Shown one piece after another: positions 5,153-62,371 of a stretch of 64,000 nt of DNA; position 1 is the first letter of the stretch; every line of letters begins with the position of its first letter. Both the position numbers and the translations under genes were made by a program. The DNA is from an uncultured bacterium (GTDB taxonomy: Bacteria > Patescibacteriota > Patescibacteriia > Patescibacteriales > UBA12465): the NCBI GenBank assembly GCA_938003925.1, contig CALKWQ010000016.1, positions 16,363 to 80,362 of the forward strand. Direction: 5' to 3'. The notes below the pieces were generated by a model, which saw only the letters and a list, made by a program, of their open reading frames with translations, was not told the origin of the DNA and made no database searches.

Positions 5153-5995
5153 ATGAAGATGACACAAGAGAATTTATCTATAAATAAGGGCTTAGCTTTT
5201 AATACCGTTCTAGAGTATAAAGAGGATGGTAAAAAAGTTTTTATGGATTTTACAGACTATACTTTTAAGGCTCAGTTTAGAACTGCTAAAAATAACCTAG
5301 CTCCTTTAGTAGTGACAGTAGTACCTACCGTAGTAGGCCTTGGTCAGATTAAACTAAGCTTATCAGAAGCTCAAACATCTATGTTTCCTGGTACTGCAGC
5401 ATTCTATGATGTATTGGCAAAATCTAGTACTGGTAATCCAGAGCCGATTTTCCAAGGTACTGTTGCACTAACTGATATAGTGACACAATGGGAAAATACT
5501 CCTCCAATAACTACAGCCTCAGTACTGTCTGGTGTATATAATGTTAATAAGACTGTAGAACTTTCAGCTAATGAAGTAGGGGCTAAAATTTATTATACAG
5601 TCGATGGCTCAGTTCCTACTACCGCTTCATTACTTTATACTTCAGCCTTAACAATAGCTGAAACTACAACTTTAAAATTCTTTGCAGTTGATACCGCAGG
5701 TAATTTAGAGGCTGTTCAGTCTATTATTTATACAATAGACAAAATAGCTCCTACTACAGTATGTAATATTGTAGCTGACGCTTCCATAGCTACTACAGAT
5801 GATATTACTTTAACAGCAGATGAAACAGCAACTATTTACTATACTACTAATGGTACAACTCCAACTACAAGTTCTACTGAGTATACTGCTCCATTCCAAT
5901 TAACAGCTGGTAATTATACTATTAAGTTCTTTGCAGTAGATACAGCTGGTAATGTTGAAGCAGTTAAAACAATTTCTAACATTACTGTAGCATAA
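5153..5995 (+). CDS. Ig-like virion surface protein with two chitobiase/hexosaminidase-C-like (CHB_HEX_C-type) repeats
   Basis: Two repeats are visible: AKIYYTVDGSVPTTASLLYTSALTIAETTTLKFFAVDTAGNLEAV and ATIYYTTNGTTPTTSSTEYTAPFQLTAGNYTIKFFAVDTAGNVEAV. The gene has its own RBS (aaggagatactttATG) and is followed by two hairpins. Confidence 0.6.
   Translation: MKMTQENLSINKGLAFNTVLEYKEDGKKVFMDFTDYTFKAQFRTAKNNLAPLVVTVVPTVVGLGQIKLSLSEAQTSMFPGTAAFYDVLAKSSTGNPEPIFQGTVALTDIVTQWENTPPITTASVLSGVYNVNKTVELSANEVGAKIYYTVDGSVPTTASLLYTSALTIAETTTLKFFAVDTAGNLEAVQSIIYTIDKIAPTTVCNIVADASIATTDDITLTADETATIYYTTNGTTPTTSSTEYTAPFQLTAGNYTIKFFAVDTAGNVEAVKTISNITVA
5507..5995 (+). repeat. tandem ~80-aa domain repeat inside the 280-aa protein
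   Basis: Similarity is still visible at the DNA level: ttctttgcagttgataccgcaggtaat versus ttctttgcagtagatacagctggtaat. Confidence 0.7.
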
Positions 5996-6004
5996 TATGC
6001 AGAA

Positions 6005-6064
6005 AGTCTCAGATGAGACTCTAACAACCCGTAGCTTAAAAAGACAACTTTTAAGCTACGGGTT
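6005..6064 (+). terminator. double hairpin / intrinsic terminator candidate
   Basis: The first hairpin is AGTCTC-agat-GAGACT (6005-6020). The second is a 16-bp perfect stem, AACCCGTAGCTTAAAA / TTTTAAGCTACGGGTT (6026-6064). There is only a weak T-tract afterwards. Confidence 0.6.
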
Positions 6065-7828: not shown

Positions 7829-7850
7829 TAAGCTAATAAAGGAGATGAGC

Positions 7851-9053
7851 ATGAGTTTGCATGAAAAAATTAAGAATTTAACTAAGTATGGTACAGCCTT
7901 AGAAGTTCCTATGGCTACAAAGGAGCAAGGTCTAGACCATTATAAGCGCGCTTGTGATATGGGTATGACTTTATGGCAGTATTTTGAGCTAATTAACCCT
8001 TCAAAGCCAGGTGATACATTATCAGCTTTTGATCGTCAGTTACAAGCAGCTGGCATCATTACAAAGTCTGATGTTACTCGTGGCTTATTTGCATCAACTG
8101 GTGAGTACTTTTTCCAGTCTGATCGTCCAGGTTCAGCTATTCTTTTCCCAACTTTACTACAAAAAACTGCTCTTTGGGCTAAAATGAATCAAGTGGCTGA
8201 TATTAATAAAATTGTAGCCACTACTCGCACAATTGCTGGTACATCCAGCTACCAGTCACTGTTTATTGACGATTCAACTATTACTAATGGCCCTGGTCGT
8301 CATTTCCGTGTTGATCAACGTGGTAAGTTTCCTTCCGTTAAAATTGGCTGGAGTGAGTCAGCAAATGCTGTGACTAAGCATGGTGTTCAGTTAGATTGGA
8401 CATATGAGTTTGTTCGTAGAGCCTCTATAGAACTTATGTCAACTGTAGTGGCTCGTATTATGCTGCAAGACCAGCAAGAACTATTTAATGAGGCCATTAA
8501 TGTAGCCATTAATGGTGATGGTTCTGTTGCAAATCCAGCAGCAGTTGTTAAAAAATTCCGTACTGCTGGCACTGTTGGAGCCAATGATATTAAGCTAGAT
8601 ACAGCTACTGTAGCTGGTGAAATATCTTATGAAGGCTATTTAAAGTTTATTGGTGGGTTTAAACCATATAACATTAATGTTATTGTGGCCAACACTAATA
8701 CTTTGACTAAGCTTATTCTAATGGCCAAGCCTAATGTAGATCCTCTTGCTGTTATTACTACACTGCAAGAACCAAAATCACAAGGTACAGCCATGATGGA
8801 CAATTCAGTGCAAAAGCTATTCCCTAATGTAACATTCTATCCAGCAGATAATATGGCTGATAATGTTCTTTTAGGAATGGATACACAGTTTGCGCTAGAG
8901 CGTGTAATTGAGTTAGGCTCTGATCTACAAGAAGTATCTCGTGTAATTGAAAATCAGACTGAAGCTATGGTATTATCAATTGCTGATGGAGTATCTAAGA
9001 TTTTTACATCAGCTATGCAAGTCCTTGATTTTAGTGCAGCTCCTTTGACCTAA
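7851..9053 (+). CDS. major capsid protein
   Basis: 400-aa ORF after the scaffold and cement genes, with the highest local GC and a 13-bp GC-rich terminator after it. I prefer the ATG at 7851, because GGAG at 7841-7844 directly abuts the track start at 7845. Confidence 0.7.
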   Translation: MSLHEKIKNLTKYGTALEVPMATKEQGLDHYKRACDMGMTLWQYFELINPSKPGDTLSAFDRQLQAAGIITKSDVTRGLFASTGEYFFQSDRPGSAILFPTLLQKTALWAKMNQVADINKIVATTRTIAGTSSYQSLFIDDSTITNGPGRHFRVDQRGKFPSVKIGWSESANAVTKHGVQLDWTYEFVRRASIELMSTVVARIMLQDQQELFNEAINVAINGDGSVANPAAVVKKFRTAGTVGANDIKLDTATVAGEISYEGYLKFIGGFKPYNINVIVANTNTLTKLILMAKPNVDPLAVITTLQEPKSQGTAMMDNSVQKLFPNVTFYPADNMADNVLLGMDTQFALERVIELGSDLQEVSRVIENQTEAMVLSIADGVSKIFTSAMQVLDFSAAPLT

Positions 9054-9078: not shown

Positions 9079-9114
9079 CCTACCCGGCTAGCCGCCTCTC
9101 CCTAGCCGGGTAGG
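9079..9114 (+). terminator. intrinsic terminator-like hairpin after the capsid gene
   Basis: CCTACCCGGCTAG-(10 nt loop)-CTAGCCGGGTAGG forms a 13-bp perfect GC-rich stem in AT-rich DNA. Confidence 0.7.
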
Positions 9115-9131: not shown

Positions 9132-9728
9132 ATGAAGCTAGGAGAAGTTAATGATTTAGGTTTTGGTTTTTGTGCTAAGTGTAAGGACTGGAAAGAACTA
9201 CCGAGTCTACATCCAGCTGATAAAAGAAAGCCTAGAAAGGAACGGAGAAGAGTTTGTGGAAAATGCTATGCGGCATTACAAAGAACTTCTGAACCGTTCT
9301 TCTTTGCAAGAAAGGCTATATCAGCGCATAAATCTATGGCTAAAGAAGGTGATTACGGCTTAAAGGACATAAAAGAGTTGCATAAATGGCAAGCTTTTCA
9401 TTGTCCATACTGTAATGATCCAATACATTATAATTTTACTATAGAGCATATTGTTCCTAGAGAAGAAGGAGGTAGAAATATTTTAAGTAATATTCTACTA
9501 ATATGTTCAAAATGTAACTCTAGTAAGCAGGATATTGAAACAATTCATTGGTTAGAAAGAAAAAGCTTTAAAATAAAGCCTAAATTTTTACTAAAAATTA
9601 AAGGAGCTTATGATGAGCACGGATTCGAGTTCAAAGCCAGCTGTAGCAACTGCCTCGGCAGCAGTAACAAAAGCATCTGCAGCAGTAACACCACAGGTCC
9701 AACAAAAGTCTGTATTACCAAAGTATAA
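9132..9728 (+). CDS. HNH endonuclease
   Basis: HNH core is HCPYCNDPIHYNFTIEHIVPREEGGRNILSNILLICSKCNSSKQD. The N-terminus has CxxC pairs (CAKCKDW, CGKCY). Confidence 0.85.
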   Translation: MKLGEVNDLGFGFCAKCKDWKELPSLHPADKRKPRKERRRVCGKCYAALQRTSEPFFFARKAISAHKSMAKEGDYGLKDIKELHKWQAFHCPYCNDPIHYNFTIEHIVPREEGGRNILSNILLICSKCNSSKQDIETIHWLERKSFKIKPKFLLKIKGAYDEHGFEFKASCSNCLGSSNKSICSSNTTGPTKVCITKV

Positions 9729-9900
9729 GTCTGAAGATTTTGATGGGGCTCCTATAGTTAAGTTAGCACTATTGACTCCTGATACTATGCAATATGACTC
9801 AAGATATAAATTAAAGTTAGATTCTACTGAGCCAGTAGAAATGCCGCTAACTCCATTTTTTGCAGAAAGACTTAACAAAACAATAAAGTTAGTAATATGA
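9610..9900 (+). CDS. hypothetical protein (Ala/Ser/Thr-rich N-terminus)
   Basis: 96-aa ORF with aaaggagcttATGATG. It overlaps the HNH 3' end by 119 nt in another frame and ends 8 nt before the endolysin start. Confidence 0.45.
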   Translation: MMSTDSSSKPAVATASAAVTKASAAVTPQVQQKSVLPKYKSEDFDGAPIVKLALLTPDTMQYDSRYKLKLDSTEPVEMPLTPFFAERLNKTIKLVI

Positions 9901-9908
9901 GGTTTTAA

Positions 9909-10445
9909 ATGTTTCCTACTAAGCCCAATTTTCAACCGATAACTTCAAATTCAGACCGTGAAAAACTATTCGGTAAGATAGAGTATATTTCTGCGCCTAT
10001 AAAAGGTAATCCAGAAAATATTTCTATTAAAGGGGATTGGGCTAGAAAAAATTTGTGTATTATAGACTTACCACAATTAATAGGAATTCAAGGCGCGCCT
10101 AATTCTGGTAAAATTCAGTGTCATATAAAAGTAGCTGATTCTATTAGATTTTTATTTTCTGAATTAGAAACATTAGGTCTATTAGATGATATACACTCAT
10201 GGGGCGGAATGTTTAATCCTAGATTCATACGTGGTAGTAAAACAGTTTTATCAAATCATGCTTACGGTACCGCTTTTGATATTAACGCTCAGTGGAATCC
10301 TTTAGGTAAAGAGCCTGCTGCAGAAGATACATTAGGATGTGTATATAAGATAGTTCCAGTGGCTAATAAGCATGGCTGGTATTGGGGCGGGCACTATTCA
10401 AAGCGTAAAGATGGCATGCACTTTGAATACGTGTATAGGGGTTAA
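9909..10445 (+). CDS. endolysin, peptidase M15 (VanY / L-alanyl-D-glutamate peptidase type)
   Basis: Zinc-binding signature SNHAYGTAFD (SxHxxGxAxD) plus DGMHFE (DxxH). Confidence 0.85.
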   Translation: MFPTKPNFQPITSNSDREKLFGKIEYISAPIKGNPENISIKGDWARKNLCIIDLPQLIGIQGAPNSGKIQCHIKVADSIRFLFSELETLGLLDDIHSWGGMFNPRFIRGSKTVLSNHAYGTAFDINAQWNPLGKEPAAEDTLGCVYKIVPVANKHGWYWGGHYSKRKDGMHFEYVYRG

Positions 10446-11806: not shown

Positions 11807-12387
11807 TGATAGCAAAAATAGCGAATAAAGAATCTAGCTATTTAGAAGCTTATGACTTACAGAATAATAGGCATAAGTTAAAGGTTTTAAATTTTACTGC
11901 CGCAGGAGCTAGAACATCTAAACTAGATAGACAATGTGTGGTTCCAATTAATTCTACTGTTATAGAAGGCACAGAATTAAAGTTGACTAATGATACTACT
12001 TTAGTAGTATCATTTAAAGAAGCTGACTGGTATAAAGGCAAAATAATAAGATATATCTTAGACTGCATAAATACTAATCAAATAGTTGATGTTTATAGAA
12101 ATACGCTTAAAAAAAGCTCACAAGGTGGATTAAGCAAGCAAGAAGAAGTCAAAATATATACGGCTATACCAGTTAAAGTAGGACTATATGACACAGCAGA
12201 GTCAAAAGAATCAAATATTATTATACCAAAGTATGTAATGTATTTATCAAAAAGATATGAGCTATTATCAGGTGATAGAGTAGTTATTAGTGATACTACA
12301 TTTGAAGTAGCAAAAGTTAATAGTTTCATGCATATTACGCCAGGCCTAATGGAAGTAAGATTTGATAAGGACCCTAGATGGCTATAG
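11806..12387 (+). CDS. putative head-closure / head-tail joining protein
   Basis: TAATG-coupled to the upstream gene. The C-terminus LSGDRVVISDTTFEVAKVNSFMHITPGLMEVRF fits the small beta-barrel pattern of head-closure proteins. Confidence 0.35.
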   Translation: MIAKIANKESSYLEAYDLQNNRHKLKVLNFTAAGARTSKLDRQCVVPINSTVIEGTELKLTNDTTLVVSFKEADWYKGKIIRYILDCINTNQIVDVYRNTLKKSSQGGLSKQEEVKIYTAIPVKVGLYDTAESKESNIIIPKYVMYLSKRYELLSGDRVVISDTTFEVAKVNSFMHITPGLMEVRFDKDPRWL

Positions 12388-12875
12388 TTAAACTTAGAGG
12401 TAAAATTAGGCTAAGAGCAAGTATAGCTAGCCTAAAAGTATTAAATAATAAGCAAAAACATGCTATAATAACAGTAGGCATACCTGGTTCTGGTAAAACT
12501 ACGTGGGCTGAACAGCAACAAAATTATGTAAATCTAAATCTAGATGACTTTAGAGAAAAAATATCTGGTAATGCTGCTGACCAAAATATTAACAAATTAG
12601 CTGTTGAAATGCGTGATGCTTTTTTAAAAAGAGCTATAAAAAAGCAACAAAATATAATTTTAAGCGACACTAATATAAATCCTTTTTTCAGAGAAAGATT
12701 AATAGATCAGCTAAAAACAGCTGGTTACAGCATAGAGTTAAAAGTATTTGATATAGCATTAGAAGAGGCCTTAAAACGTAATGCCAACAGAAGTAGAAAT
12801 GTACCAGAAGAAGTTATTATACGTATGTATAATCAATTAAAGGACCAGAATATACATGGATCCAGCAATAAGTAG
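12378..12875 (+). CDS. polynucleotide 5'-kinase, T4 Pnk kinase-domain homologue (no phosphatase domain)
   Basis: It aligns by eye with the T4 Pnk N-terminal domain at four points: GIPGSGKTTWAE (P-loop), NLDDFREKI, IILSDTNINPFFRERL, and KVFDIALEEALKRNANRSRNVPEEVIIRMY. No DxDGT phosphatase motif is present. Confidence 0.8.
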   Translation: MAIVKLRGKIRLRASIASLKVLNNKQKHAIITVGIPGSGKTTWAEQQQNYVNLNLDDFREKISGNAADQNINKLAVEMRDAFLKRAIKKQQNIILSDTNINPFFRERLIDQLKTAGYSIELKVFDIALEEALKRNANRSRNVPEEVIIRMYNQLKDQNIHGSSNK

Positions 12876-14270: not shown

Positions 14271-14303
14271 ATGCGGATTGTAATAAAATGTTACAATCCG
14301 CAT
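14271..14303 (+). terminator. intrinsic terminator-like hairpin after the tail tube gene
   Basis: ATGCGGATTGTAA-taaaatg-TTACAATCCGCAT forms a 13-bp perfect stem, followed by gttattat. Confidence 0.65.
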
Positions 14304-14346
14304 GTTATTATAAAGTAGTTTAAAAGTTACAGTGAAGCAAATAGGC

Positions 14347-14400
14347 TGAAACAGCGTTTATAAAGTAGGCTAGTATAAATATTAAGGTAATAAATAACAC
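14347..14400 (+). promoter_or_regulatory. conserved promoter-like cassette, copy C (TGAAACAG-N17-AGTATAAAT-N12-AATAACAC)
   Basis: One of three near-identical intergenic cassettes. It ends 22 nt before the ATG at 14423. Confidence 0.5.
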
Positions 14401-14422
14401 TAAATCACAAAAGGAGAGTAAA

Positions 14423-14998
14423 ATGGAGAAGTTAGCTGCTGGTAAATTTGGTATTACGCTTTCTGGAGAGGCACAGACAGTCGTAATTACATTTGGCTTA
14501 AGAAGTGATATATTACGTCTTATAACTAAAGCACAATTAGAGTATCGTAGCTTGTCTGCTAAAAGTATGTTACCTACTGAGATGAGAGCTAAACTAGCTG
14601 AGCTAGTAGAAACGTTAGACGCAGAAAGAGCTAAAGAAGAAAAAGATGAAGCACGTATTACAGAACTTCAAAACCAGGTAAATAAACTATATGAAGATTC
14701 TATTAAGATTATAGACGATAATAAGGATAAGCTCATTGAAGAACTTGCCTTAGGCTCTATAGATTTAACAGATAGTCTAATTGCTGACATTTTATCACTA
14801 GTGCTTACAAAACGTAATGATAAAGGTGAAGTAATAGGAAAAGTCTCTAAGGATGATATTTTATACGGCGCTCAGTTTGCTAATGATGGTGATGAGTTAC
14901 TTCAGTTAATTGAAGGTGTAATGCTATATTTAACTGACACACTAAAAAAAATTCAAGTAGTGAACCAAATGCTGACCAGTCTCGTAAAGAACGACTAG
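14423..14998 (+). CDS. tail assembly chaperone (gpG-like)
   Basis: 191-aa acidic helical ORF between the tail tube and tape measure genes. RBS is aaaaggagagtaaaATG. Confidence 0.65.
   Translation: MEKLAAGKFGITLSGEAQTVVITFGLRSDILRLITKAQLEYRSLSAKSMLPTEMRAKLAELVETLDAERAKEEKDEARITELQNQVNKLYEDSIKIIDDNKDKLIEELALGSIDLTDSLIADILSLVLTKRNDKGEVIGKVSKDDILYGAQFANDGDELLQLIEGVMLYLTDTLKKIQVVNQMLTSLVKND
14944..14951 (+). promoter_or_regulatory. slippery A8 run: programmed -1 frameshift (or transcriptional slippage) site
   Basis: The site reads C-TA-AAA-AAA-AT in frame 0. The -1 frame is open from 14950 straight into the 15082..15312 ORF. Confidence 0.6.
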
Positions 14999-15312
14999 CG
15001 GCTATTAGAAAGGCAAAAGGCCTACCTGAACCAGATGAGTCTAAAGATATAGAACTCACTATTTATGATTTAATACAAATTATGTGCAATAGTAATCCCC
15101 AGGTAGAACTAAACACTATCTGGGGTTACACACAGGAGGAGATTCTTCATCGTTGGGATATATGGAAGAAATTTGATATAGTAACTAGAATATTTGGTCC
15201 AGGAAAAAAGGAACAAGATGAATCACAGACCCCGGTAAATACTAATGCTACAATGTCTGCATTAGCCAATTTATTCGGGCCTAATTTTATGCAAAATCCA
15301 AGTGAGGGCTAG
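14950..15312 (+). CDS. -1 frame extension of the tail chaperone (gpGT-like C-terminal part)
   Basis: I translated the -1 frame by hand from 14950 (NSSSEPNADQSRKERLAAIRKAKGLPEPDESKDIELTIYDLIQIM...). It has no stop until 15312. The predicted fusion is about 296 aa. Confidence 0.6.
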   Translation, partial: NSSSEPNADQSRKERLAAIRKAKGLPEPDESKDIELTIYDLIQIMCNSNPQVELNTIWGYTQEEILHRWDIWKKFDIVTRIFGPGKKEQDESQTPVNTNATMSALANLFGPNFMQNPSEG

Positions 15313-15313
15313 C

Positions 15314-18300
15314 ATGGCAGCTAATAATTTTTCTAACAGTATTAAAGGCCTAGAGAACCTAGATAAAGAATCGTTACCTAGCAATGATCAGGCAATAGTT
15401 GATGTTACTGGTGAAGCCAGTATAAACGCTAGTGATGTTTCTCTTTTACTTAAACCAACTATAGACCAAAGGGCCTTTAAAGATGCTACTGATCAAGTAG
15501 AAAAGCAAGTAGCTTATATAAATAGGCTAATGGCTAGTGCTGGTCAAAAATCTGAAATTGGTAAAAAAGGCACGTACACATCTACAGCTGGCTTTGAACA
15601 AATAAACGCGGCTATGGCCCAGTTTAGTCAAACTGGTGACTATAGTAGCTTCACTACTGAATTAAAGAAACAGTTGGAAGTAGGAAGAAAAAAGTCTGGT
15701 AGTGAAGCTATGCGTAAGGCGGCTATAACAGCCGCTAAACAATTTAATACATTAACTATAGACGTAGAGAATACCTTTAAAGAGGGTGGTATTACAGGCG
15801 ATATACTGTCTATATCTAGTAAGCACAGTCAAGATAGTTCACCATCAACTATGATAAGAACAGACTATAAGAAACTTATAGCCTCTAGTATAAAGTATTG
15901 GGCCAATATTGGTAATCAAGCTAATGTAGAGTTATTAAAACAAGTAGAAGCTGGTCTAGACCAAGGCGCTAGCGAAGCTAGAAATGGTAATCCTAACTAT
16001 AGACTTGTTAATGCAGCTCAAATGCGTAGTGGTATAGTAAGCACTATTAATAGTAATCCTACCGCTACGCTACAAGGGGTTAACTTTTCTACTGATATTC
16101 AAAAATTAGTAAGTTTTATTGGAACTAAAAGCAAGGCAAGTACTTCAGCTTCAAATGCATTGTTAGGTGGTGTTAGTTTAGACCAGCAATTTATGAAGTA
16201 TTTTGGTCTTACTGATTTTACTCCTGGTAGATCAGTAACCCATATGGCTGACTTATTAGGCCTATTACCTAAAGTTTCTAAAGCACATGAAGGCGGATGG
16301 GACGTTGAAGTAACTGAACAAATAGGCGCTATTATACATTCATTAAGTGAGTATGAAAAAGGCCTAGCTGCCGGCAATACATCTATTCCACCAGTTGTTA
16401 AAAGTCTTAAAAGTAGACTTTCTCAGCCATCAGTTAGATCAGCATATCAGGGCAGAGTAATAGCTACTAGTGCTTTACAACACTTAAATCAAATAGCTAT
16501 AGGTAGTATACCGACTACAGAAGCTGCTGAAGAAAAGGCGTATAACCTAGTAAAAAATGTTTCTGCACAATCAGTAGGAAAATTAGTAGATTTTACTAGC
16601 CCAGAGTATAACTTACCTGCTACTAGTATATCTGATAGTCAGAAAGGTCTAGTTAAACAACAGCTAAGTGTATCTAGAGCAAAAGTGGCTAGTAGTGATT
16701 TATTTGATATAAGTCCAGATAGTGAAGGTCTAGAAAAGTATGCTATGCTACAAGCTGCTGCTCTAGTGCATCAATTAAGTGGCATAAAATATACAGATAA
16801 ACGTACACTTAGTCCTGATGATCAGGTTGGTATAGTTTCTGATGCGCTTTATAATAGATTAAATAGTGACTTTTCTCATAAGTTAAGAGATACTAATGGA
16901 CAAATTCATACAGGTGTTAGTGAGCATATAGACCTAGATAAAATAGTTTCAAATATAGATGGTCTATTAGTTAATAATGGTAAATTTACAGCGAACGCGT
17001 CTGGAGTAGGCACTCCTGATGCTACAGCTTTTATAGTTAACGCTGTTAAAAACGCTATATTAAGAGGCATAAATTCTGACCTAAAAATAGGTGGAATTGA
17101 TAATATAGCTTTAGATAAAACAGACTCTAGTCTTCCTAGAGAAGTGTTTCCAACACAAAGTGCTAAAAAGACAGATAATATTAGGCGTGATGTTGGCTTA
17201 AAGGCAGTATCTAAATTTATTCTTAGTAAAATTGGTACTGATGGTGAGCTAAATCTAAGCTCTGATAAGCTTGTTAGTGAAACTAGAAGACACATAGAAA
17301 ATGGTTTTTTTGAGCGAGATGAAAAAGAAGAATTAAGTAAGCCTACAACTGATAATGTTAATGCACTTACCGCGTATAAAGACTATGTTAGTAAGCTTAA
17401 TATAGCTAGGGGCTCAAATTATGAAAATACCTCAGCCCCAATAGACTACTTAACTAAGCATGGCTATAGTATAGTTAAACCACGTGAAGCCGGTGAAAAT
17501 GCTAATTATGAACATAGTGGTATACTAGGCCAAATGGAAGGACATCCAGATCTATTAGCTCATAGAGTGGTGCCTAAGCTAGATGGTAGCCTAGAACGAA
17601 GATACTTACTACCAGACATAAAAAGTCCTAATAAGCTACCAAAATCATTTAGTGATGTAGAAAATGATAACTATAGTCGTGAGTGGATAGCTCAAATAGT
17701 ATCGTATGCTCAGATGCTACCAGAGTCTATACGTAATTTTTTAGACATAGGCATATTAGCTGGTAAACCAAATGAACCAGGTAGTGAAGTTCTAGTTACT
17801 AAGCCATATAATGAGTTAGTTAAAAATCCAGTATGGGCAACATTAGTAGAAGAATTACATAAAGTAAAGGTAGGATCTGCAGCACATATAACATCATTAC
17901 CAAACAATATGTTACCAGCTGGCCCAGTACTTCAGGCAAACATAACAGCTGATGAGCAGAATAATGTTAATAGACTAATTAATGAAAGAAACGATATTGG
18001 CCCAAAATATGTTGAAAAATTAGTAAATTTGGCTAATAGGCGTGATGGTGCTTCTCAAGGTAGTTTAATATATGAGTATACTAAGCAAAATGTAACAGGT
18101 GGAGATAGCTTAAAATCAATAATAGATAGCATGTACAATGAGCACATATTTGGTCAAGTTAGTAAGGACCAATTTGCTTCTAATAGTTTATCTCTATTAC
18201 TAGAGGCCATAAATGTTCCAAAAGACAAGCGTAAAGATACTATCTTAGATAAATTAACAGGCAACTTTAGCCCAAACGAAACAATACAAAATAGACTAGT

Positions 18301-21300
18301 TGGTTTAGAGGTACAGGAAAAGCCTGATGCTCAACCTAAAATTTCTAAAATTACTAATGAGCAACTAAGAAAATACTTTAATAAAATGTCTAATAGCATA
18401 AATGAATTTTGGGCTGGGGCATTTGCTTCTGATGAATTACAGGGGAGAAAAGTATCAAATAAGTATGTTAAAACTCTTAATATAGATGTTGCAAATCAGG
18501 CTAGTTTACCAGGGGCTTTAAGCTTTGAAGACGCAGAACGTAGGGCTCGTATAGAAAAATCTCTATTAGCTGGCTATAATAGAGCAGACCTAGATGCACA
18601 AAATTTAGTATTTAGCGCAGAGGCTAAGAAAGCTGCTATAGGGACTTCAGGCGGCTCTAACTATTTACATACAGGTATAGCTCCTAATTATGCTAAAAAA
18701 TCAACTGATGGAGAAATAACTTATGAGGAAAGTATTGCTGAGGCTATACAGCGAAAGCAATACTATGCTACTCAACTTGACACATTTAAGGGTTCTAGTT
18801 CTACTTTTGATATACTTAATAAATTAAAGACTAAGGAAGACACTAAGCGTACATCAGACATAGCCGCAGAATTAAATAGAGTGCTTAGTCTACAGCATGC
18901 ATTTAATGAGTCTAATGAAGCTGATAAAGGAGCAACAGGTTTTCGATATGCTAGAGCATATCGTAGATTAGCGAACTTTAATGAGCCTAATATACTTAGT
19001 ATGGTTAGAGCTCCAGAAGATATGTTTAAGGATATGCCTGAATCATTTAGTACATCTTATGCAGAAGCTGCCAATAATTATAGTATTAACTCTCGTAGCT
19101 TTGTACCTACTAGCATTCAAAATAGTGATGAATTCTTAAAAAAATTAGAATCTAGAAAGAATAAGCTTTCATTAGATTCACAATTAAATAGATATATAGC
19201 TAGCTATATATCAGAAAATGAAGACACAAATCTTGAGCTTATTGGAACAAAATCAGACATAGCCAGTAAGCAAGAGGTAGAGGCTAAGGCTATAGCAAGT
19301 TTCTTGCAAAAGTACCAAAAACAGCCAGAAAAACAATCTGATGATCCAGTGTTATCTAATATACTAGCAGAACGTACAGACTTAGCCGATAAACATCAAA
19401 ACAATTTACAGAAACAGTTTAGAACAGCTGATACATTCGGTTTAAGCACAGAAAATTTAAGCCAGATTATTTCATCAGCTTCTACACTTTCATCTATTGG
19501 AGAGTTTAGCTCTATAGGCTCATATCTTGAAAAAGATATAATAGACTTTTCTGGTTCTAAACAATTAGCTCAGTTAAAAACAGCGGCTAATCTAAAACAA
19601 ACATCAAAATTATCAGGATCAGACTATCAACGGCAATTAGAAAATTATGCATCTAGTATAGCTGATCAAATAGCTGGCTTATTAGGCAACTCTAGTATTA
19701 TTGATTCTAAGACTAGTGGTAGTTTATACTCTACAGGAAGGAATGCTGAATCGGCTATAGCTAGATACACAAGTCTTAACTCATATATAGAACAAAAAGA
19801 ATTATTAAAACAGGAAGTAAGCCAAGATGACTATGAGTCTAGAGATAGGCTTAAAAAAGAGTTAAGTAGTTATAGAACAGATTTTGAAACGTTAGCCGAT
19901 CCTTCTGTTAGACTTACAAGCTTAAAAGATAAAATTATAACAAGCGATAGTTTACAAGTTTTTAAGCCAAGCTATATAGCTGATAAAGCCGATAGACTTA
20001 GTAAGTTACAAGATATGTCGTCAAGTTTACGCCTAGCTGTCGATCAGGGCGATATGTCTACTACACCTGAACTGTTAGATAATTTTGTATCATTACACAA
20101 GTTGTATAAAAAATCAGGATTAGACTATACTAAAGGTGGCTTAACTATAAGTGATATAATGTCACAGTATGACACTAGTAAGTCTATTTCTTCAAATTTT
20201 GGTGTAGATGGTGAACTAACTAATAAAGGTAACCAGTTTGTAGTAGCTTCACAAACACTTAAGTCTAGCTCTAGCGGAGCTAATAAATTTGATGCACTAA
20301 TAACAAAAGAAAAAGCAGCTTTAGCCGCAGTTAGAGAGCTTGAATCAGCTTTTACAGCAATAAGTAATCCTGACTTAGGTAAAATAGAGTCAGAGTTTAG
20401 AAACCTTTTAGAGACCATAAATGCAGATACTACGGCTCTATATAAACTGGAAGAAGCTAAAAAAGCAGCTGGAGGAAAACTATCAAGTCAAGACGAAAAT
20501 AAACTGGCTATTGGAAAAGAAAGAGTGCAGGCTAATATAACTACTGCACAAGAACTAGCTGAAAAAATGAAGCAAAAAGATAGAACAAAGGGCTTAACAG
20601 AAGCTGATTGGAAAGCTCAAGTAAGAGACGCTAGCCTAGAGCGTGAAGATCAGAAATATAGTCTTAGATCTAAAGCAACTAATCTTAATGCACTTATAGA
20701 CTCTGGTAAAGTTGGTAGCTCAAACAGATATAACGCTACACACGCGGAATTTGAAGAAGCAATAAGATTAGCCAAAGAGTTAGAAAGTCTCGGAGTAAAA
20801 ACTGGTCATGATAATAAAACTTCATTTGGTTTATACTCATCATCACAGCTTGAAACAATGATGAGCAATAGTGGCCATAGAGGTAAGCAACACTTAAGTT
20901 TTACTGAAGGCTTAGTAGATCAAGCAGCATGGAAAATGCAGTTTGGTGGTGCTGGCGTTGTATTAGGTGGTTTAAGCGCGTTAACTGTTGGAGGCTTTAG
21001 CGAAGCAAAAAAGTTTGAAGAGGACATGAAAAATGTTGAGCTAGTATCACAAGCTTCAACTATTCAATTAGATCAGCTTAAAAATAAAGTAGTAGAGTTA
21101 TCTACTACTTTCACTAATACTCCAGCTCAGCTTAGTGATGGTTTAATAATTTTAGGCCAAGCTGGTTATAAAGCTGCTGAATCATTACAGCTTCTAGGCC
21201 CTATAGCTCAACTAGCTACAGCAACAATGTCTGATTTAAAACAAGCTGCTGATATTACAACAACTGTTTTAATGTCATTTGATAAGCCAGTGGCTAATGC

Positions 21301-24300
21301 TGCTGAAGTAACTAATACATTAGCTGCAGCTACAATAGAATCTAAGTTAGAACTATCATCTTTAGGTACTGTACTAAACTATGTAGCTTCAACCGCACAT
21401 ACAGCTGGTATGTCACTTGAAGAAACTGAAACAGCTATGGGTATCATGTCTAATGCTGGTGTTAAAGCATCTACTATTGGTACTTCATTACGTAGCATTT
21501 TAGGTACATTAATAGCACCTACTGCTGCATTTAATAATGAATTGGCTAGAATAGGCTTAACAGCAGACGATGTAAATCCACAGATAAATTCAATGTCTAC
21601 TATTTTACAAAGGTTACATTTTAAAGGCTTTAATGTAGAGAATGCATACCAAGGTCTTGATAAAAGAATTGCCGGTAATATATCTACTTTAATGGCACAA
21701 GCTGATCAGTGGGATAGCTTCCAGTCTAAGATTACAGGTACTGATACTGCTGAAGCTATGGCCTATGGGCAAATGGATACATTTGGAGCTCAGTCTAAAA
21801 GACTAAGTAATACTTTTGATACTACTAGAATAGGTCTAATGTCTGGTGCTCTAGAGCCACTCAAAACTGCGGCTATGGCATCAAGTGAAGTATTAGAACT
21901 TATTGGCAAAGCTGCTGAAACTTCTACAGGTAAGGCTATAACTAGCTTCGCCACTACTGGTTTAGCCATAGGTAGTTTTATATCTATTTTAGGTGGTTTA
22001 AGATCAGCAGGATCTACTATACTTCCAGCACTAGGTGATGCAATTAAAGGCTCAGCTGCCCAGTGGCTTATTAGACCTACTGGTGATACTACGTCTAATT
22101 ATTTTAAAAATAAAACACAGTTTGTTTCAGCTGATAGTAATTTAGGTAAAATACTTAATACAACAACTGATATAAATAAACTACCAGTTAGTCAGCAAAG
22201 AATGCATCAAACAATAACATCACTTGGCGGTATGGCTTTTAATCTTCCTACATTAGCTATAACTGCTGGTCTTGGCTTAGCATGGGCTGGGTATAGCTCA
22301 TGGAAAGATTCTGACTTACCTGGTTTAGGAACTGGTAAAAATAGAATGATTGAGTCTAAAAGAAGCGCTGATAACCTTTCTGGATATATAGCAACCCTAG
22401 AAAAAGCTTCACAACAGCAGCGTAAATTAGCTCTATTTAACAGGGGTGAAAATTCTAGTAGTACAAGGGCTTTTGATGAAATGCTTATTAATACTGGAGT
22501 ATTTGCTAGTGTAAATGAATTAGGACAAACAGTAACGGCGGGCTATAAGTCAAATAAAGATATGGGAATTTTAAAACTGGTAAAGTCTAGGGATAGTATT
22601 GATCTAAAAACTTCACTTAGTATGGCAAAAGATGTGCAAAGAACTAAAACTTCAAAAGAAGAAATAGACTCAATGTTCAATTTTGCGCAAAAAAGTTATG
22701 ATACGGATAAAGAAGCTATTTCAGATGGTGGTAGACAAGCTTCTACCATGGTATCCGATTTGGCTATACGTAAATTAAAACGAGAAGGAAAATTTTATGA
22801 TGTAGACGCAGTTTTAAAAGAGGCAAATAATGCAGCACCAGGTGGAAGTCAGATGGCTCAGAGTATTAGAAATAATATACTGGCTGCGCATGAAGAGGCT
22901 ATGACTGTGCCTAATATGAGAGAGTCTAAAACTAGCCAAGCTCAAGATGCATATAGAGAATTACAGAGAATTGATGAAGATATTAACTTATACTCTTCTT
23001 TATTGAGTGGTAAACAGTTAAACGAAGGTGAGTCTAAGAGGGCTAAGAGTGTATTGCCTGAAAGGGCTAAGGCTTTTTTAAAACCAGTTATGAGTGATGA
23101 AAAATTTTCAAAAGCAATAGCCGAAGGCGGTTCATTTAATTTATTATATAAGCATGCGCTAACAGGGCTAGAAAAAGATGGTGATACTGATAAATTCTTT
23201 AATGCTATGCAAGTAATTGCAGCTGGTAGTGGATCTGCTAAAGGTACTAATATAAGAAAAGAATTTTCAGATGATCTTACACGTGTCCTATCTAAAAAAG
23301 GCTCTCAAGAAAGAATGGATGAATTAGCTAGACTAGGTAAAGATGCTGTATTTGAATCACCAGAAAAAATAATGGATAGATCAACATATTCTGAGTCTAG
23401 AACTAGGTTTATACAAGAAGGTACTTTTAAACTAGATAGATTTATTAACGCTAATGAAAAGCTAAAAGCTGCAAAATCTAAACAGTCTAGTTTAACAGCC
23501 GGTACACAGGAATATGATGTAGCTAGTAAAGCTGTAGAAGAGGCAAGGTCTTTATTAGAACGTCAAGAAGCAGAATTAAAACCATTCTTAACAGATAGTT
23601 TTAGATTTATGCTGCCTAATACAAATGATTCAAATAGAAAGTTTTTACAAAAAACTAGAGGATCCATTGGAATTGTTGGCTCAATGGGGCTGTCTAGTTT
23701 ATCATCTGATCAATATGATGATTTTGCTGAAAAAATGGATAAGCTTAGAGTAAGGCATGAGGAAACATTAAACCAAGATATAGTTAAAGGTAATATAAGT
23801 ATAAAACGTAAGGTACAGTTACAATATGAACTAGATGTAAAAGATACCTTACATGAAATGATTCTAAATGCTAACAAAGATGTATTTAAATACTCTGAAC
23901 TAATAGGTAGTAGTATTAAGCAGTCTATGGAGGCTTCCATAGGTAGTAAAACTCTAAAATTAGATTTTTCAAAGGTAGAAACAGATATAGAAGCCAGCAA
24001 TACTATTAGTAATATGAAGCTAGCTGGTAGATCAGTTGTTTCTAGAACTCCAGCTAATTATTTAGAATTTAAGAGTAATAGCTACAACAGCTTAATGCAG
24101 TCACCTATTGATAGCCTAAATATTCCTAAGTTTAGCCAAGATGCTATTTACCTAGTATCTACAGATGCTCAGGTAGAAAAGCTAAATAATAATCTGCGTA
24201 CAACTCTTGATATTCTAAACGAGACAAAAACTAGTCTAGCTATTACAAAAGCTCAAGATATTAGCAGTCTTGCTAATATTAATGATTCTGACTTAAGCAG

Positions 24301-27300
24301 ACAAAAGACCCTAGATCTTGAAGAAAAATACATTAATGGTAGAATAGAGGCTAATCAACGGGCTTTTAGTTCTATTAAACAAATATTAGAAGAAGAGATA
24401 AGACTAAGGGATCAGCTAGTAGATAAGATAGCAAAGGCAAAAGATGCACAAGCTGAGTCAACAAGAGACATTAGAGAGGTGTCTAAATCTTTATACAAAT
24501 CTGCTGGTATTGATGTAAGTGAGGATCCTAAAAAATTATTAGATAGCTTAAAAGCTAAAGAACAAGAGTATAATAAAAGAGTAGCTGGAGGTGATGTTGA
24601 AGGAGCTAATAAAATTATAAGCTCAATGAAGTCTGATGAAGTAAAAGAGCTAACATCAGGTCAATACGCAAATTACTATGTAAAAGAAGCTGGAGATATA
24701 TTTAGTAGAATGGAGAAAAAGCAGCCTGAGTTATATAACAATTATACATCAAATTTAGTAGAGAGAACTAATGCATCAAATAATACTTTAGATAGTGCTA
24801 GAGGTGATCTGGCTAAATTAATTTCAGACAGCATTCAACTAGCTAAGGATAAAGGTAGAATAAATGATGAACAAGCTTCAATATATAAAGATAAGTTTGT
24901 TAAACGCTTAGAAGCTAATAGTGGTAATCAAGAAATTGCCTCTTCAGTATTTACTGATTTTGCTAAGACACCAGTTTTACAGGAAAAGATGTCTGAAGGT
25001 ATGAATATAGAAATTATATTTAAACACTTAGCCGATGTTATTGGTACATCATTAAATCCTACAATAGACAAAGCAACTGAAGAACTTAAAAAGTTTATAA
25101 CTCAATTAAATAGCTTTGTGCCTATGTCTAAGCAGTCATTGAGTGATGTTACACCAACTGAGCAGGACGTAACTAAACTAATAGGTAATGATGCTGCAGA
25201 GGCTTTAGGTATTGGCAGCTTTAAAATGCCTAGGCTAATAGCAGAAAATAAACATAATAATGTAGATGGTTGGAATACTGGTAATGAGATACACTATACA
25301 GATAAAAAATCATTAATACATGAATTAATACATTCTAAAATAGCCTCTGAGGGTAAGCAATTTAAAGGCAATTACGCAGAAAAAGAGCTTGCTGAAGAAT
25401 TTGAAGTTAATAAAAGAATGGTACAGATGGGCCAACTTAATAGGTCTGATGTAGAGGATAGATTTGGCTTAGGACTTGATGCTGATTCTTCAAACCTTTC
25501 TTCTGAGCAGCTAAATAGCTTAATGGGCTCTAGGGCTAGTAAGCAGTATGCACAAAAAACTAGATATTCACTTAATGATGAAGTACTAGCTAATTATAAT
25601 AGTCAACCCCAATGGAAAAGAACTACATCTAATGTAGTTCACACGGTACTGCCGGCAGTTTCAGCAACTATAGGAGGTTTAGTCGCTGGCGCAGCAGCCA
25701 CACCAGAAACATTTGGAGTAGGTACAGTACCAGCTGCTGCAGCTGGTGGTGCTTTAATGTATGGTGCTGGTAAACAAGGGTCTAAACTGATAGATAAGTA
25801 TGTATTAGGCCTACCTGATAAGGAACTACCAAAATTCAACAATCCTATTATTAATTCAGCGTATGAGGCTACGTACGATGTGGCAGAAGGCGCGGCTATG
25901 GAAGCTGGTGGTGTTCTTATGGCAAAAGGATTAGAATATGCCAGTCCATATGCCATTAATGCTACTAGAGCTATTGCTAAACTAGGAAAATCTAAGCAAA
26001 AAGTTAGTGTTAGTAATAATAGCTTAACATCTGCGCAATATGTTCATACAAGTGGTAGACCTATAGCTGAACTTAATCAGGATAGTACTCTGTTTGTATC
26101 TCCGATAGATAATATAGAAGCTTCTCTAGCTAGGTTAAATAGTGGAACCGCTATAACTTATGGCGTGCGTGCTGAAAAATCTGCTAATATATTTGATATA
26201 ACTAATATGGCTAATAGAAAAAAGTTTATAAAAGCCTATGTAGAGGCCAATAAGAATGAATATCCAAATATGTCTAAAAAAGAGCTAATGCCTAAGCTTA
26301 GAGATAAAGCTGCAGAAATATTTGATGGAGCAAATACTACTATTAATGGAGAACTGAAGCATGGTGAAAAACAAGACTTTCAGTACTTAGAAGATGGCAG
26401 CCATGAAATATTACCTACTATTAGACGTACTTTAGACCACTTAGGTGCCGATGGTTTAAAAATGAAAGACGCAGGTAATCCGGCTATAGCTATATTTAAT
26501 AAACACAAGTTTAATGTAACTGGACCAAATGGAACAAAAGTTCCAATTATGGGAGAAGAAGTACCATTAAGAAATATATTTGAAACACCAGTAGAAGCTG
26601 TAGCCTCACAAATAAAAAATAATAATCCTGCATATAGATTTAATGCAGACCCAGTTTTAGGCATGTATGATTCAGTAAAAAATATTTCAACTCCGGCTAG
26701 ATGGGCCAAACTTAGATCATTATCACCAGCAAGAATGATGAAAAACTTAACTGGTGAAGAAGCAGTTAAAGCATCGGCGTATGCAACAACAAAATTAGCC
26801 CTAGCATCCTCAGTTGGAGGTGGTAGTCAATTATTTAACTCATTAATTATGACTACTGATAAAAAAGAGCCAGCTAAAACTATTGAGCAAACAATAGCTG
26901 AATCAAAAGAAAATTCAACAGGTATATCTAATGAATCTTATGCTAGAATAGAAAAAGCACAAAATGAAAGAGCAGCTTTAGAGTCTAATAGATTAACAAC
27001 TATAGCTAAGAAAAAAGATAGCCGTAATAATGCTTTATATAGTCTAAATCCAGAGGCTGCATCAGATAGTTCAATAAGTGAAATGATGGCTAAATCTAGT
27101 GAACAGCAGACACAGTTTGATATATTTGAGACCAAAGGGGCTACCGGGCTTTCAAAATATCTAAAGAAACAGGGCGCTACAAAATCAGAGATAGCTGATA
27201 GAGTTAAATATGTTGGAGAAATAGTAGAGTCAAGTAAAAATAGTGCCGTTGTAAATAGTGGTATACAGCAATCATCAACACACTCTAATATATCGACTAA

Positions 27301-60849: not shown

Positions 60850-61053
60850 TTATTGCCCTTCATTTGAATCCTCCAAGGCTAATGTAGCTCCAACATAGGC
60901 AAATGCCAATAGAGCTAATGTACCATAGTTTGCTATCAGTTTATTCATATCTATTATAGCATTATCAAACATAGTTCTTTCTTCATTAGAAAGACCACTA
61001 ACTGTCTGTCTAATTTCCTCAATAACGGCCATATGTTGTTCTTTTTCAATCAT
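60850..61053 (-). CDS. small protein with C-terminal TM segment
   Basis: I prefer the ATG at 61053 (AAGGAGA 7 nt upstream) to the track start at 61089, because that extension would cover promoter cassette A. The TM segment is YGTLALLAFAYVGATLAL. Confidence 0.5.
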   Translation of the reverse strand: MIEKEQHMAVIEEIRQTVSGLSNEERTMFDNAIIDMNKLIANYGTLALLAFAYVGATLALEDSNEGQ

Positions 61054-61072
61054 TATCATTCTCCTTGAAATA

Positions 61073-61125
61073 GTGTTATTATTAAGCAATGGTTATATAC
61101 TAACTGATTATAAAATGCTGTTTCA
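61073..61125 (-). promoter_or_regulatory. conserved promoter-like cassette, copy A (TGAAACAG-N16-AGTATATAA-N12-AATAACAC)
   Basis: Read on the - strand, it ends 19 nt before the ATG at 61053. Confidence 0.45.
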
Positions 61126-61164: not shown

Positions 61165-61869
61165 TTAGTGGTCATTTTCGCCATATACCATATCTGCCCA
61201 GCTTTTATATGGCTTACCACAGCACATTTTTCCTTGATCGCATTTTCCTTCAGTAACACAGGCACAACCACCCATTTTAATACATTCACCGAAACCAGCT
61301 TGATCAATTGCCTGTAACATACCTCTAATGTTTTGTAAAGATTCTGGTGTATTTCTACGACAAGCCCGTTGTGGCATAATAATACAAACTATTTCACGAA
61401 GGTTAAACTTTGCGTATAAATGATTAGACGCAGCACCAGGAAGAACATATCTGGCATCATCCTTACCAACATAATGTTTTAATAATGTATAAGTTTCGTT
61501 AATCTTTTCCATTAGGAGCTTATAAACACCTGAGGCCTGTTCATGATTCTCAATTGACTCTGGAATTACATACGGAAAGTTATCATGATCTTGATATTGC
61601 TGGGAGCCAGAAGTATAAGAGGCTACGCGGTGTCTAGTTATTTGTGATAAAAATACACGTGAGGTACTTTCAAATATAAATCCAAAGTCTGCACATTCTA
61701 AAAGAGAAGTATGACCCATATCAATGAGAGCTCTCATTATCTTAAGGCCTGCTTCATGTGAAGTTGGTTTAAATGCTTTTTTATGCTGTGTTAATGATGC
61801 TAGTCCACCTATCACTGCAGGAACATCAAAATCTGGTTTAGTTATTAGCAATACCTGACTATTTTTCAT
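61165..61869 (-). CDS. thyX: FAD-dependent thymidylate synthase ThyX-like
   Basis: The ThyX motif region is TRHRVASYTSGSQQY (RHRxxSxxxxSx, with Q where I expect R). Length is 234 aa, with a Cys-rich C-terminal tail. Confidence 0.75.
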   Translation of the reverse strand: MKNSQVLLITKPDFDVPAVIGGLASLTQHKKAFKPTSHEAGLKIMRALIDMGHTSLLECADFGFIFESTSRVFLSQITRHRVASYTSGSQQYQDHDNFPYVIPESIENHEQASGVYKLLMEKINETYTLLKHYVGKDDARYVLPGAASNHLYAKFNLREIVCIIMPQRACRRNTPESLQNIRGMLQAIDQAGFGECIKMGGCACVTEGKCDQGKMCCGKPYKSWADMVYGENDH

Positions 61870-61892
61870 AAAATCTCCTAATTTAAGAACAA

Positions 61893-61946
61893 GCGTTATT
61901 ATAGGTCTTAGTATTTATACTGACTAGTATCTACAACACTGTTTCA
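61893..61946 (-). promoter_or_regulatory. conserved promoter-like cassette, copy B (TGAAACAG-N17-AGTATAAAT-N12-AATAACGC)
   Basis: Read on the - strand, it ends 23 nt before the thyX ATG. It contains TATAAT, with TAGTCA 17 nt upstream of that. Confidence 0.5.
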
Positions 61947-61969
61947 ATAATGCTGTATAGATGTAACTT

Positions 61970-62371
61970 TTAAAGCTGTAATGTTGTCCCACTAATGTAA
62001 CGCTCATATTCATGTTTTCTTATACTAGAAAGACAACAAGACTTAAACTTTTTACCGCTACCACATGGACAAGGCTCATTTCTACCAGTTTTAGCCACTG
62101 GCTCTGATAGAAATGGTTTTTGCTTAACTTTTAAAAGCCCAAGACATAAGCCTATTCTAGCCTCTTCATGAGTAAGTGTATTTACCCTTTTTAGTAAAAG
62201 AGACCTAATATGAGTATTACAATCATCTAGAGATAGAATATCAGTTGTTACACCAGATATAGCTAGCAAATGACCATACGCCTCAACTGCTCTAGACTCT
62301 TCTACATTATAGAATCTTGCTAGCTTTTCAATTATAGGCACTGCTTTTTCCATCATAGCTTTTAGTTCCAC
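61970..62371 (-). CDS. SEC-C motif protein
   Basis: The C-terminal [16 protein letters not shown] is the SEC-C zinc-binding motif. The start is a GTG with AAGGAGGT 5 nt upstream. Confidence 0.7.

Follow-up and report, generated by a model that had tools for sequence, protein, structure and literature searches.

RNase III processing sites have reportedly been described in phage T7 (R0.3, R1.1 and others; Dunn & Studier 1983) and in the Bacillus phage SP82 (Panganiban & Whiteley 1983). Such sites are irregular hairpins of ~60 nt, several per genome, which lie between cistrons a short way ahead of a ribosome-binding site and are found in early as well as late gene blocks. On bacterial chromosomes, the REP/BIME and Correia palindromes occur in hundreds of copies, are mobilised by RAYT or other transposases, are bound by proteins, and have been proposed to stabilise upstream segments of mRNA. 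In phage T4, late promoters lie inside hairpins that sequester the Shine–Dalgarno sequence or the AUG of genes e, soc, 49 and I-TevI (PMC3014915). In the PeSLs of T4-type phages, which mediate shuffling, a stem–loop terminator precedes a promoter close to the sigma-70 consensus (TTGACA-N17-TATAAT) (PMC2839356, PMC4122927).

Here we describe a cassette of about 62 nt that occurs three times in the window, by which we mean the whole 64-kb stretch of DNA analysed. These three sites are the window's share of an intergenic cassette found throughout an uncultured phage clade, and on sequence grounds the cassette is clearly a gene-expression signal. It is repeated, conserved across the clade, bounded by inverted repeats, regular in its placement between genes and tied to variable gene modules. 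We offer its function as a lead rather than a result. The best reading, to which we give a probability of roughly 0.4, is an intercistronic stem–loop that would punctuate transcripts and whose AT-rich loop may also harbour a promoter.

The cassette resembles each of the known systems in part. It is like the T7 and SP82 sites in its size, its intercistronic placement, its association with both gene classes and the partial sharing of sequence between copies, but its arms are far more conserved than RNase III needs, pairing in the window copies is too weak to make them credible as substrates, and there is no sequence homology. With the nested late promoters of T4 it shares a TATAAATA-type box between the strands of a hairpin upstream of a gene, a layout that homing-endonuclease genes use, and in both cases transcripts started inside would lack the 5′ strand. 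Unlike in the T4 hairpins, the Shine–Dalgarno sequence of the cassette lies outside the arms except in L289-1 (a copy in a relative) and its predicted accessibility is unchanged, TATAAATA is exact in only 4 of 21 copies, and neither gp55 nor gp33 was seen in the ~90 kb of clade DNA examined. Like PeSLs, the cassettes are short, repeated and putatively regulatory, flank small variable genes and show exchange between copies; unlike PeSLs, they contain no pair of terminator and sigma-70 promoter, the palindrome itself would enclose any start site, and the phage lineage has T5-like replication genes and a siphovirus-type tail rather than being of the T4 type. Finally, the cassettes are imperfect intergenic palindromes within operons, near stop codons and in either orientation, as are REP/BIME and Correia elements, but in contrast to those bacterial repeats each phage genome has only a few, 19 of the 21 copies share the orientation of the gene that follows, and the called genes include no transposase.

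Table 1 Features of the window associated with the cassette, with coordinates on the 64-kb stretch.
Feature	Coordinates	Strand	Description
Terminator-type hairpin	14271–14303	+	Canonical; lies between the major-tail-like gene and copy C, close to the latter
Upstream box, copy C	14319–14331	+	TTTAAAAGTTACA; exactly 15 nt before copy C
Copy C core	14347–14407	+	61 nt; pattern and profile matches
Copy C 5′ arm	14347–14358	+	TGAAACAGCGTT
Copy C central box	14372–14379	+	AGTATAAA
Copy C 3′ arm	14396–14407	+	AACACTAAATCA
Gene served by copy C	14423–14998	+	191-aa protein before the tape measure ORF; tail assembly chaperone position
Tape measure ORF	15302–27925	+	Single ORF of 4207 aa, giant tape measure protein; PF10145 on orthologues
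Gene served by copy A	60850–61053	−	67-aa membrane-associated protein (phrog_18620); start ATG 61053
Copy A core	61066–61125	−	60 nt; pattern and profile matches
Copy A 5′ arm	61125–61114	−	TGAAACAGCATT
Copy A central box	61101–61094	−	AGTATATA
Copy A 3′ arm	61077–61066	−	AACACTATTTCA
thyX	61165–61869	−	Flavin-dependent thymidylate synthase, PF02511; copy B upstream, copy A downstream
Copy B core	61886–61946	−	61 nt; pattern and profile matches
Copy B 5′ arm	61946–61935	−	TGAAACAGTGTT
Copy B central box	61921–61914	−	AGTATAAA
Copy B 3′ arm	61897–61886	−	AACGCTTGTTCT
Upstream box, copy B	61962–61974	−	TTTAAAAGTTACA; exactly 15 nt before copy B

Copies C, B and A lie where a first-pass annotation of this DNA had placed them (14347 on the plus strand, 61946 and 61125 on the minus strand) and have the sequences it gave, save that its first box, TTGAAA, reads CTGAAA at the start of copy C. 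The unit of ~54 nt that it described was correctly located, with the 3′ border to be moved 7 nt further on (14407, 61886 and 61066). By itself TGAAACAG occurs seven times in the window against 2.1 expected; the composite TGAAACAG-N16/17-AGTATA has exactly three sites, those of the cassettes, where 0.01 would be expected, and none of 100 shuffled sequences contained as many. A profile built from 20 cassette copies detected no fourth copy in the window. All three copies are intergenic, although gaps of more than 25 nt between genes number only ~9 in the window, and each faces its downstream gene. The interval from cassette 3′ end to start codon, annotated as 19–23 nt, measures 22, 23 and 19 nt for C, B and A, respectively. 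The last of these values holds once the small gene is taken to start at its true ATG, 7 nt after AAGGAG, and not at TTG 61089 of a mechanical ORF list; the 3′ arm of copy A abuts this AAGGAG ribosome-binding site. The proposal of a genuine, non-random cis element is borne out, the element being orientation-biased and located just upstream of ribosome-binding sites, and so is its reported presence in both the structural and the nucleotide-metabolism blocks, at the tape-measure operon and thyX. Copies C and B are in addition preceded by an upstream box (Table 1), which at copy B overlaps the TAA stop codon (61972–61970) of a gene with a SEC-C motif. Cassettes of the clade usually have such an arm-like box; in relatives it reads AAAGTYACR(NN)GTTTCA and looks like a further repeat of the 3′ arm, the third arm-like sequence of the unit.

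The ends of the cassette are imperfect inverted repeats, a feature absent from the first description. Among the window copies, the first 12 nt conform to TGAAACAGYRTT and the last 12 to AACRCTnnnTCA, and these arms pair at 8 of 12 positions in copy C and at 9 of 12 in copy B. On the mRNA-sense strand of copy A there are 7 of 12 standard pairs, or 9 when two terminal A-U pairs are included; on the opposite strand all 12 positions pair if G-U is counted. Every full copy in the clade measures 60–63 nt and runs from (T/G)GAAAC to GTTTC(A/C), with arms of the form TGAAAC(A/T)(G/A)CGT... and ...ACGC(A/T)GTTTCA on either side of an AT-rich centre. In L122, L123, L198, L291 and L300 the arms are perfect over 12–17 bp (GGAATCAGCGTTAT...ATAACGCTGATTCC). 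The two arms are about equally conserved and are the best conserved part of the cassette, above the TATA box. Conservation of the loop is moderate (AGTA...TATAAAGG in the window clade), and the central TATA present in every copy is its one universal feature.

Loci of relatives were recovered from IMG/VR, ENA, Logan and NCBI assemblies with cassette-flanking proteins as queries. A profile search of 278 kb of clade DNA found 20 full copies, all intergenic, and a further full copy in IMG/VR (L300) brings the total to 21, 18 of them beyond the window; one truncated copy was found at L287. The profile gave 0 copies in 870 kb of unrelated thyX-bearing viral contigs, a negative control composed of distant thyX phages (≤44% identity) from an IMG/VR thyX-profile search. 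Exact-pattern scans of IMG/VR with the motif as first annotated returned chance single matches and the L121 contig only, and when GTDB genomes were scanned for the palindrome with perfect arms, six unrelated GC-rich palindromes came up and neither a host nor a prophage. A protein-based scan of genome contigs yielded no relatives, and that of metagenomes one usable fragment. Cultured phages gave no DNA match, and their PolA proteins are at most 32% identical, so no annotated relative is available to supply a promoter or terminator annotation.

The clade is uncultured, with contigs of 134–165 kb, and carries a T5-like gene set (PolA, flap endonuclease, SNF2 helicase, primase, SbcCD, dUTPase, dCMP deaminase and thyX) together with many HNH genes. 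ARAGORN found no tRNA genes in the 64-kb window, unlike T5 with its tRNA-rich regions. The giant tape measure ORF is common to the whole clade, with orthologues of 4133–4494 aa. By the usual rule of thumb of 1.5 Å per residue, the protein in the window would correspond to a tail ~0.6 micrometres long. The structural block, on the plus strand, and the block for replication and nucleotide metabolism, on the minus strand, converge at 55364–55377, where their terminal ORFs overlap by 14 nt. The head–tail block also contains a Zeta_toxin/AAA_33 kinase-like gene (12378–12875, +) and a Peptidase_M15_4 gene (9909–10445, +), both named from Pfam matches on identical genes in L193; one relative has a 371-aa Kinase-PolyVal protein in place of the kinase-like gene.

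Placement of the cassette is tightly constrained across the clade. Nineteen of the 21 copies face and abut the downstream ribosome-binding site and end 12–27 nt from the start codon, with the ribosome-binding site 0–16 nt outside the arms (22 nt in the inverted copy L288-3) and L289-1 as the exception. All relatives examined, to a protein identity as low as ~63%, have a cassette at the orthologous place before the chaperone gene, and closer relatives have cassettes both upstream and downstream of thyX. The distant relatives L288, L289 and L292 carry them at other junctions, in particular around accessory genes between sbcD and sbcC, in the order sbcD-cassette-orf-cassette-sbcC; this cargo differs between L288/L292 and L289. 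In the window clade, sbcD and sbcC overlap and lack that cargo, and the arrangement B-thyX-A is found instead. The element precedes the tail chaperone/tape measure genes, which are of late type, as well as thyX and sbcC, which are of early type, and in this it is unlike a temporal-class promoter. Two copies are inverted with respect to flanking genes, L288-3 (18194–18254 of L288) and the copy in L300 (1126–1186). They begin 0–8 nt after the upstream stop codon, are separated by ~90–110 nt from the nearest real start that follows, and are directed at convergent coding sequence, into its 3′ end. Their inversion, their position next to stop codons and their rank among the most stable hairpins fit a hairpin role that is independent of orientation.

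Some copies show signs of possible mobility. In L198, an HNH endonuclease gene (9359–9979) directly follows the 3′ arm of cassette C and precedes the chaperone gene, and in the same genome a remnant of an HNH C-terminal coding sequence directly follows cassette B (L205, ~9893–10000), which suggests that homing co-converts or targets the cassette. As the insertion between cassette and chaperone gene is tolerated, the element would act at the level of the operon and not on one ribosome-binding site. Paralogues are also more alike than orthologues: L198C and L205B, from one genome, are 79% identical, against 53–60% for orthologues, and copies within one genome evolve in concert. Such behaviour could in principle belong to a functionless selfish or relic repeat, one that has spread from one intergenic site to another either as a REP/MITE-like palindrome or through co-conversion by homing endonucleases, in line with the variable cargo that the copies flank (sbcD/sbcC in the three distant relatives, thyX in the window clade), the closeness of paralogues and the truncated copy at L287. 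We consider this very unlikely, given that orthologous positions such as that upstream of the chaperone gene are kept to ~63% protein identity, that the copies adhere strictly to one length range and to one placement with respect to ribosome-binding sites, and that neither target-site duplications in the inspected flanks nor a transposase among the called genes was found.

We then compared pairing across 20 copies. The outer helix is 76% paired, against 33–40% with the partner slid; both sides have changed in 9 of 15 pairs, and 0 of 500 shuffles match its covariation score. The inner stems vary in sequence even between copies of one genome and often still pair, for example as UAGGCU/GGCCUA in L195, UAUAGUAGGC/GCUUACUAUA in L204-B and AUAGCUAU/AUAGCUAU in L204-A, with z < −2 in 9 of the 20 copies; the window copies have no inner stem. 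Against a conserved stem–loop, RNAalifold returned no consensus structure for the 20-copy alignment, and the balance of G-U pairs and A-C mismatches revealed no consistent strand bias over the same copies. The outer stem has 7 G-U pairs against 21 A-C mismatches on the sense strand, which favours the antisense, the inner stems are at least as good on the sense strand in most copies and strictly better in 13 of 20, and the overall fold is better on the antisense in 10 of 20. A single folding strand was rejected, since the outer and inner stems disagree. The sequence of the arms is, moreover, conserved beyond what pairing would demand: the 5′ arm is intact in the window and L121 although its partner, the outer 3′ arm, has decayed, and its C6 is far better conserved than the base it pairs with.

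Two further arrangements of the arms were considered. The upstream box and the 5′ arm are 76% complementary and show no covariation beyond shuffles (352 of 500 do as well), so an alternative covarying hairpin formed by them is unsupported. The possibility that each arm is a palindromic operator of its own (AAC-N3-GTT) was rejected, as L122-type copies break this motif and keep perfect long-range pairing. Rfam gave no match at gathering thresholds on the window and only chance-level matches on the cassette regions.

The same observations bear on whether the palindrome is read as duplex DNA, with the upstream box and both arms as sites for a clade-specific protein (an operator, repressosome or activator) or as a target for recombination or a homing endonuclease, and with the hairpin as a by-product of symmetry. 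Protein recognition leaves unexplained why inner stems differ in sequence and yet pair, and a dimeric regulator would not typically have half-sites 50 bp apart; no DNA-binding protein emerged as a candidate, and the inspected flanks contain no direct repeats. For these reasons we regard a protein-bound DNA site as quite unlikely, even though it would account for arm sequences conserved across the whole clade, the tight spacing of 60–63 bp, folding without strand preference and a third arm-like box at a fixed distance without covariation. Concerted evolution in one genome (79% versus 53–60%) and the HNH gene or remnant directly after the 3′ arm in two of its copies are also in its favour.

The predicted stability of the hairpin differs greatly between the window and its relatives. 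The window copies fold no better than shuffles, with z of −0.18 for C, −1.44 for B (−11.7 kcal/mol) and +0.68 for A on its sense strand, which counts against a stem–loop function there. Their stems have largely decayed while three sequence blocks persist: GAAACAGCGTT, AGTATAAATAT and AATAAC are kept in the window and in L121, and so are the 5′ arm and AGTATAAATA. The strong folds of relatives (L122, L123, L198, L291 and L300) have energies between −22 and −29 kcal/mol and z near −7, including −27.7 kcal/mol and z −6.8 for L122 and z of −7.1 and −7.4 for L300; L289-2 has a z of −4.5, and the most stable fold of all, −34 kcal/mol, is that of L288-3. Judged by the RNase III criterion of ~20 bp of mostly continuous double-stranded RNA, L122, L123, L198, L291, L288-3 and L300 reach 15–19 bp in the outer and 4–9 bp in the inner stem, and window copies C and A do not.

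At position C, the cassette coexists or alternates with a separate terminator hairpin. In the window, L121 and L195 the terminator hairpin is strong (−27 to −30 kcal/mol) and the cassette weak (−2 to −16 kcal/mol), whereas L122, L123, L291 and L198 have no terminator and a strong cassette (−22 to −28 kcal/mol). This complementary distribution, which rests on only ~2 independent lineages, suggests that the two hairpins can substitute for each other. The cassettes are not themselves intrinsic terminators, as no U-tract follows the hairpin: the 3′ arm is typically followed by TAA..., and the terminator scan does not call them. Elsewhere in the window, strong GC-rich perfect hairpins of unique sequence at ~6026–6064 and ~9079–9114 (+) come after genes 5153–5995 and 7845–9053, have no clear U-tracts and stop ~10–35 nt before the next ribosome-binding site. 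Their placement is like that of the relatives' cassettes, and such hairpins just upstream of ribosome-binding sites are consistent with the stem–loop function proposed above.

A long intergenic element upstream of the flap-endonuclease region is likewise conserved in position (L204, 5154–5260; L205, 4500–4620; L288, 5139–5273; L289, 4203–4330; L292, 5005–5130). Its terminal arms pair over 10–15 bp, and a T-run follows it in L204 and L205 but is absent from the L288, L289 and L292 loci. The element, which lies outside the window, could be a terminator or a structured RNA.

The first-pass annotation had proposed a phage-specific promoter, rightly doubting a standard sigma-70 signal: TGAAA and TATAAA are 21–22 nt apart and there is no fixed −35/−10 pair. 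Scoring against sigma-70 gave TAGTCA-17-TATAAT (10 of 12) in copy B and TTGAAA-18-TAGTAT (9 of 12) in copy A, at different positions, and no pair inside copy C. No −35/−10 pair occupies one conserved position across the copies. The octamer likened to T4 late promoters, TATAAATA, is exact in window C and window B as described, but clade-wide only L121C and L195C join them (4 of 21); copy A carries TATATAAC instead, and in most relatives the box is TATAAAGG or some other variant of TATA. Against the layout of an ECF sigma site (a GAAC/AAC-type −35, a strict spacer of 16–17 nt and a CGT/GTC-type −10), window B, L121, L123, L198 and L291 show GAAAC or GGAATC, 16 nt and GTC; other copies read GCT, GCC, ACC or ATT there, and the −10 column is weakly conserved. 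No gene for a sigma factor, an RNA polymerase or a gp55- or gp33-like protein was found in the ~90 kb of clade DNA examined, and a 910-aa gene beside the helicase gene, considered as an RNA polymerase, is a primase. A MerR-type long-spacer promoter and a CRESS-type nonanucleotide origin were considered and set aside for their unfitting position or copy logic.

Canonical sigma-70-type promoters (TTTACA or TATACA, 17 nt, CATAAT/TATAAT/TATTAT) do occur in relatives, where they precede a small gene after the SNF2 helicase gene and are conserved (L204, 4196–4276; L205, 3516–3587; L288, 4043–4115). This shows that the host uses standard promoters and, host-type promoters being recognisable in the clade, that the cassette is not one of them. 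In T5, sigma-70 promoters serve all gene classes (PMC7472727), and T5 therefore offers no precedent.

What is left of the promoter proposal is a phage-encoded or phage-modified polymerase specificity factor that would recognise the 5′ arm with its GAAAC, perhaps together with the upstream box, and melt the central TATA(A/T)A, with the 3′ arm as 5′ untranslated region. A cis element before genes was correctly foreseen; conserved complementary ends, two inverted copies and the stable hairpins of relatives are not what a promoter leads one to expect. Nor is it easily reconciled with the variable position of any −35/−10 pair, with arms of about equal conservation that surpass the TATA box, with inverted copies aimed into the 3′ end of a convergent coding sequence, with early-type and late-type genes both served, or with the lack of a sigma, RNA polymerase or gp55-like gene in the ~90 kb examined. 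It nonetheless keeps weight, above all for the window phage, because the hairpins of the window are degenerate and selection has kept the annotated sequence blocks: GAAACAGCGTT, AGTATAAATAT and AATAAC outlast the pairing in the window and L121, and C6 of the 5′ arm is conserved much better than its partner. The 19 copies that face a gene at 12–27 nt from its start codon, the location of copy C after a terminator, and the HNH gene directly downstream of a cassette, as if borrowing its expression signal, also fit a promoter. So do the central TATA of all copies, with TATAAATA exact in four, and a 5′ half that is loosely ECF-like (GAAAC/GGAAT, 16 nt, GTC) in several; given canonical TTTACA-17-TATAAT promoters elsewhere in relatives, the cassette would be a second class. 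We hold this promoter reading to be a strong rival, next in probability after the stem–loop.

Our preferred reading is that of the intercistronic stem–loop. The cassette would be transcribed within polycistronic messages and its stem–loop would mark the end of one cistron's RNA and the start of the next, as a processing site for a double-strand-specific (RNase III-type) enzyme, a hairpin protecting 3′ ends or an insulating hairpin, the mode of action of T7 R sites and bacterial REP elements. The conserved sequence of the arms suggests that a phage or host protein may read them as well, and the AT-rich loop may hold an internal start site, in the manner of the T4 late promoters nested in hairpins. 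The phage of the window would have retained the sequence-specific part, with a separate terminator hairpin now preceding copy C. Sequestration of the ribosome-binding site gains no support: the unpaired probability of the region from Shine–Dalgarno to start codon is similar in full-length transcripts and in those starting at the 5′ arm or in the loop, which, with arm conservation beyond the needs of pairing, counts against the stem–loop. We infer from sequence each of the steps involved, namely transcription of the cassette, folding in vivo, cleavage or stabilisation of the RNA and any internal promoter.

These elements may also be combined in a bifunctional, semi-mobile module. The GAAAC arms of the 62-nt palindrome would be read by a clade-specific factor, the stem–loop would end or process transcripts, and a start in the loop would re-initiate them; the module would move with accessory genes and homing endonucleases between junctions in an undescribed clade of ~145-kb T5-like siphophages with tape measures of ~4200 residues. 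We rate this combination as rather unlikely.

For the biology of the clade, the 62-nt profile provides a specific marker, with 0 matches in 870 kb of other viral contigs, and the arm motif points to a putative trans-acting factor. Mobile regulatory cassettes, so far represented by the PeSLs of T4-type myoviruses, would, if the present reading is true, also be represented in siphoviruses of a distant lineage, where their architecture differs. If the element is a hairpin for processing or insulation, whether or not a start site is nested in it, it would give a concrete, sequence-defined handle on how an uncultured phage clade that is abundant in metagenomes divides its long operons, for example in setting the ratio of the major tail protein to the chaperone and tape measure.
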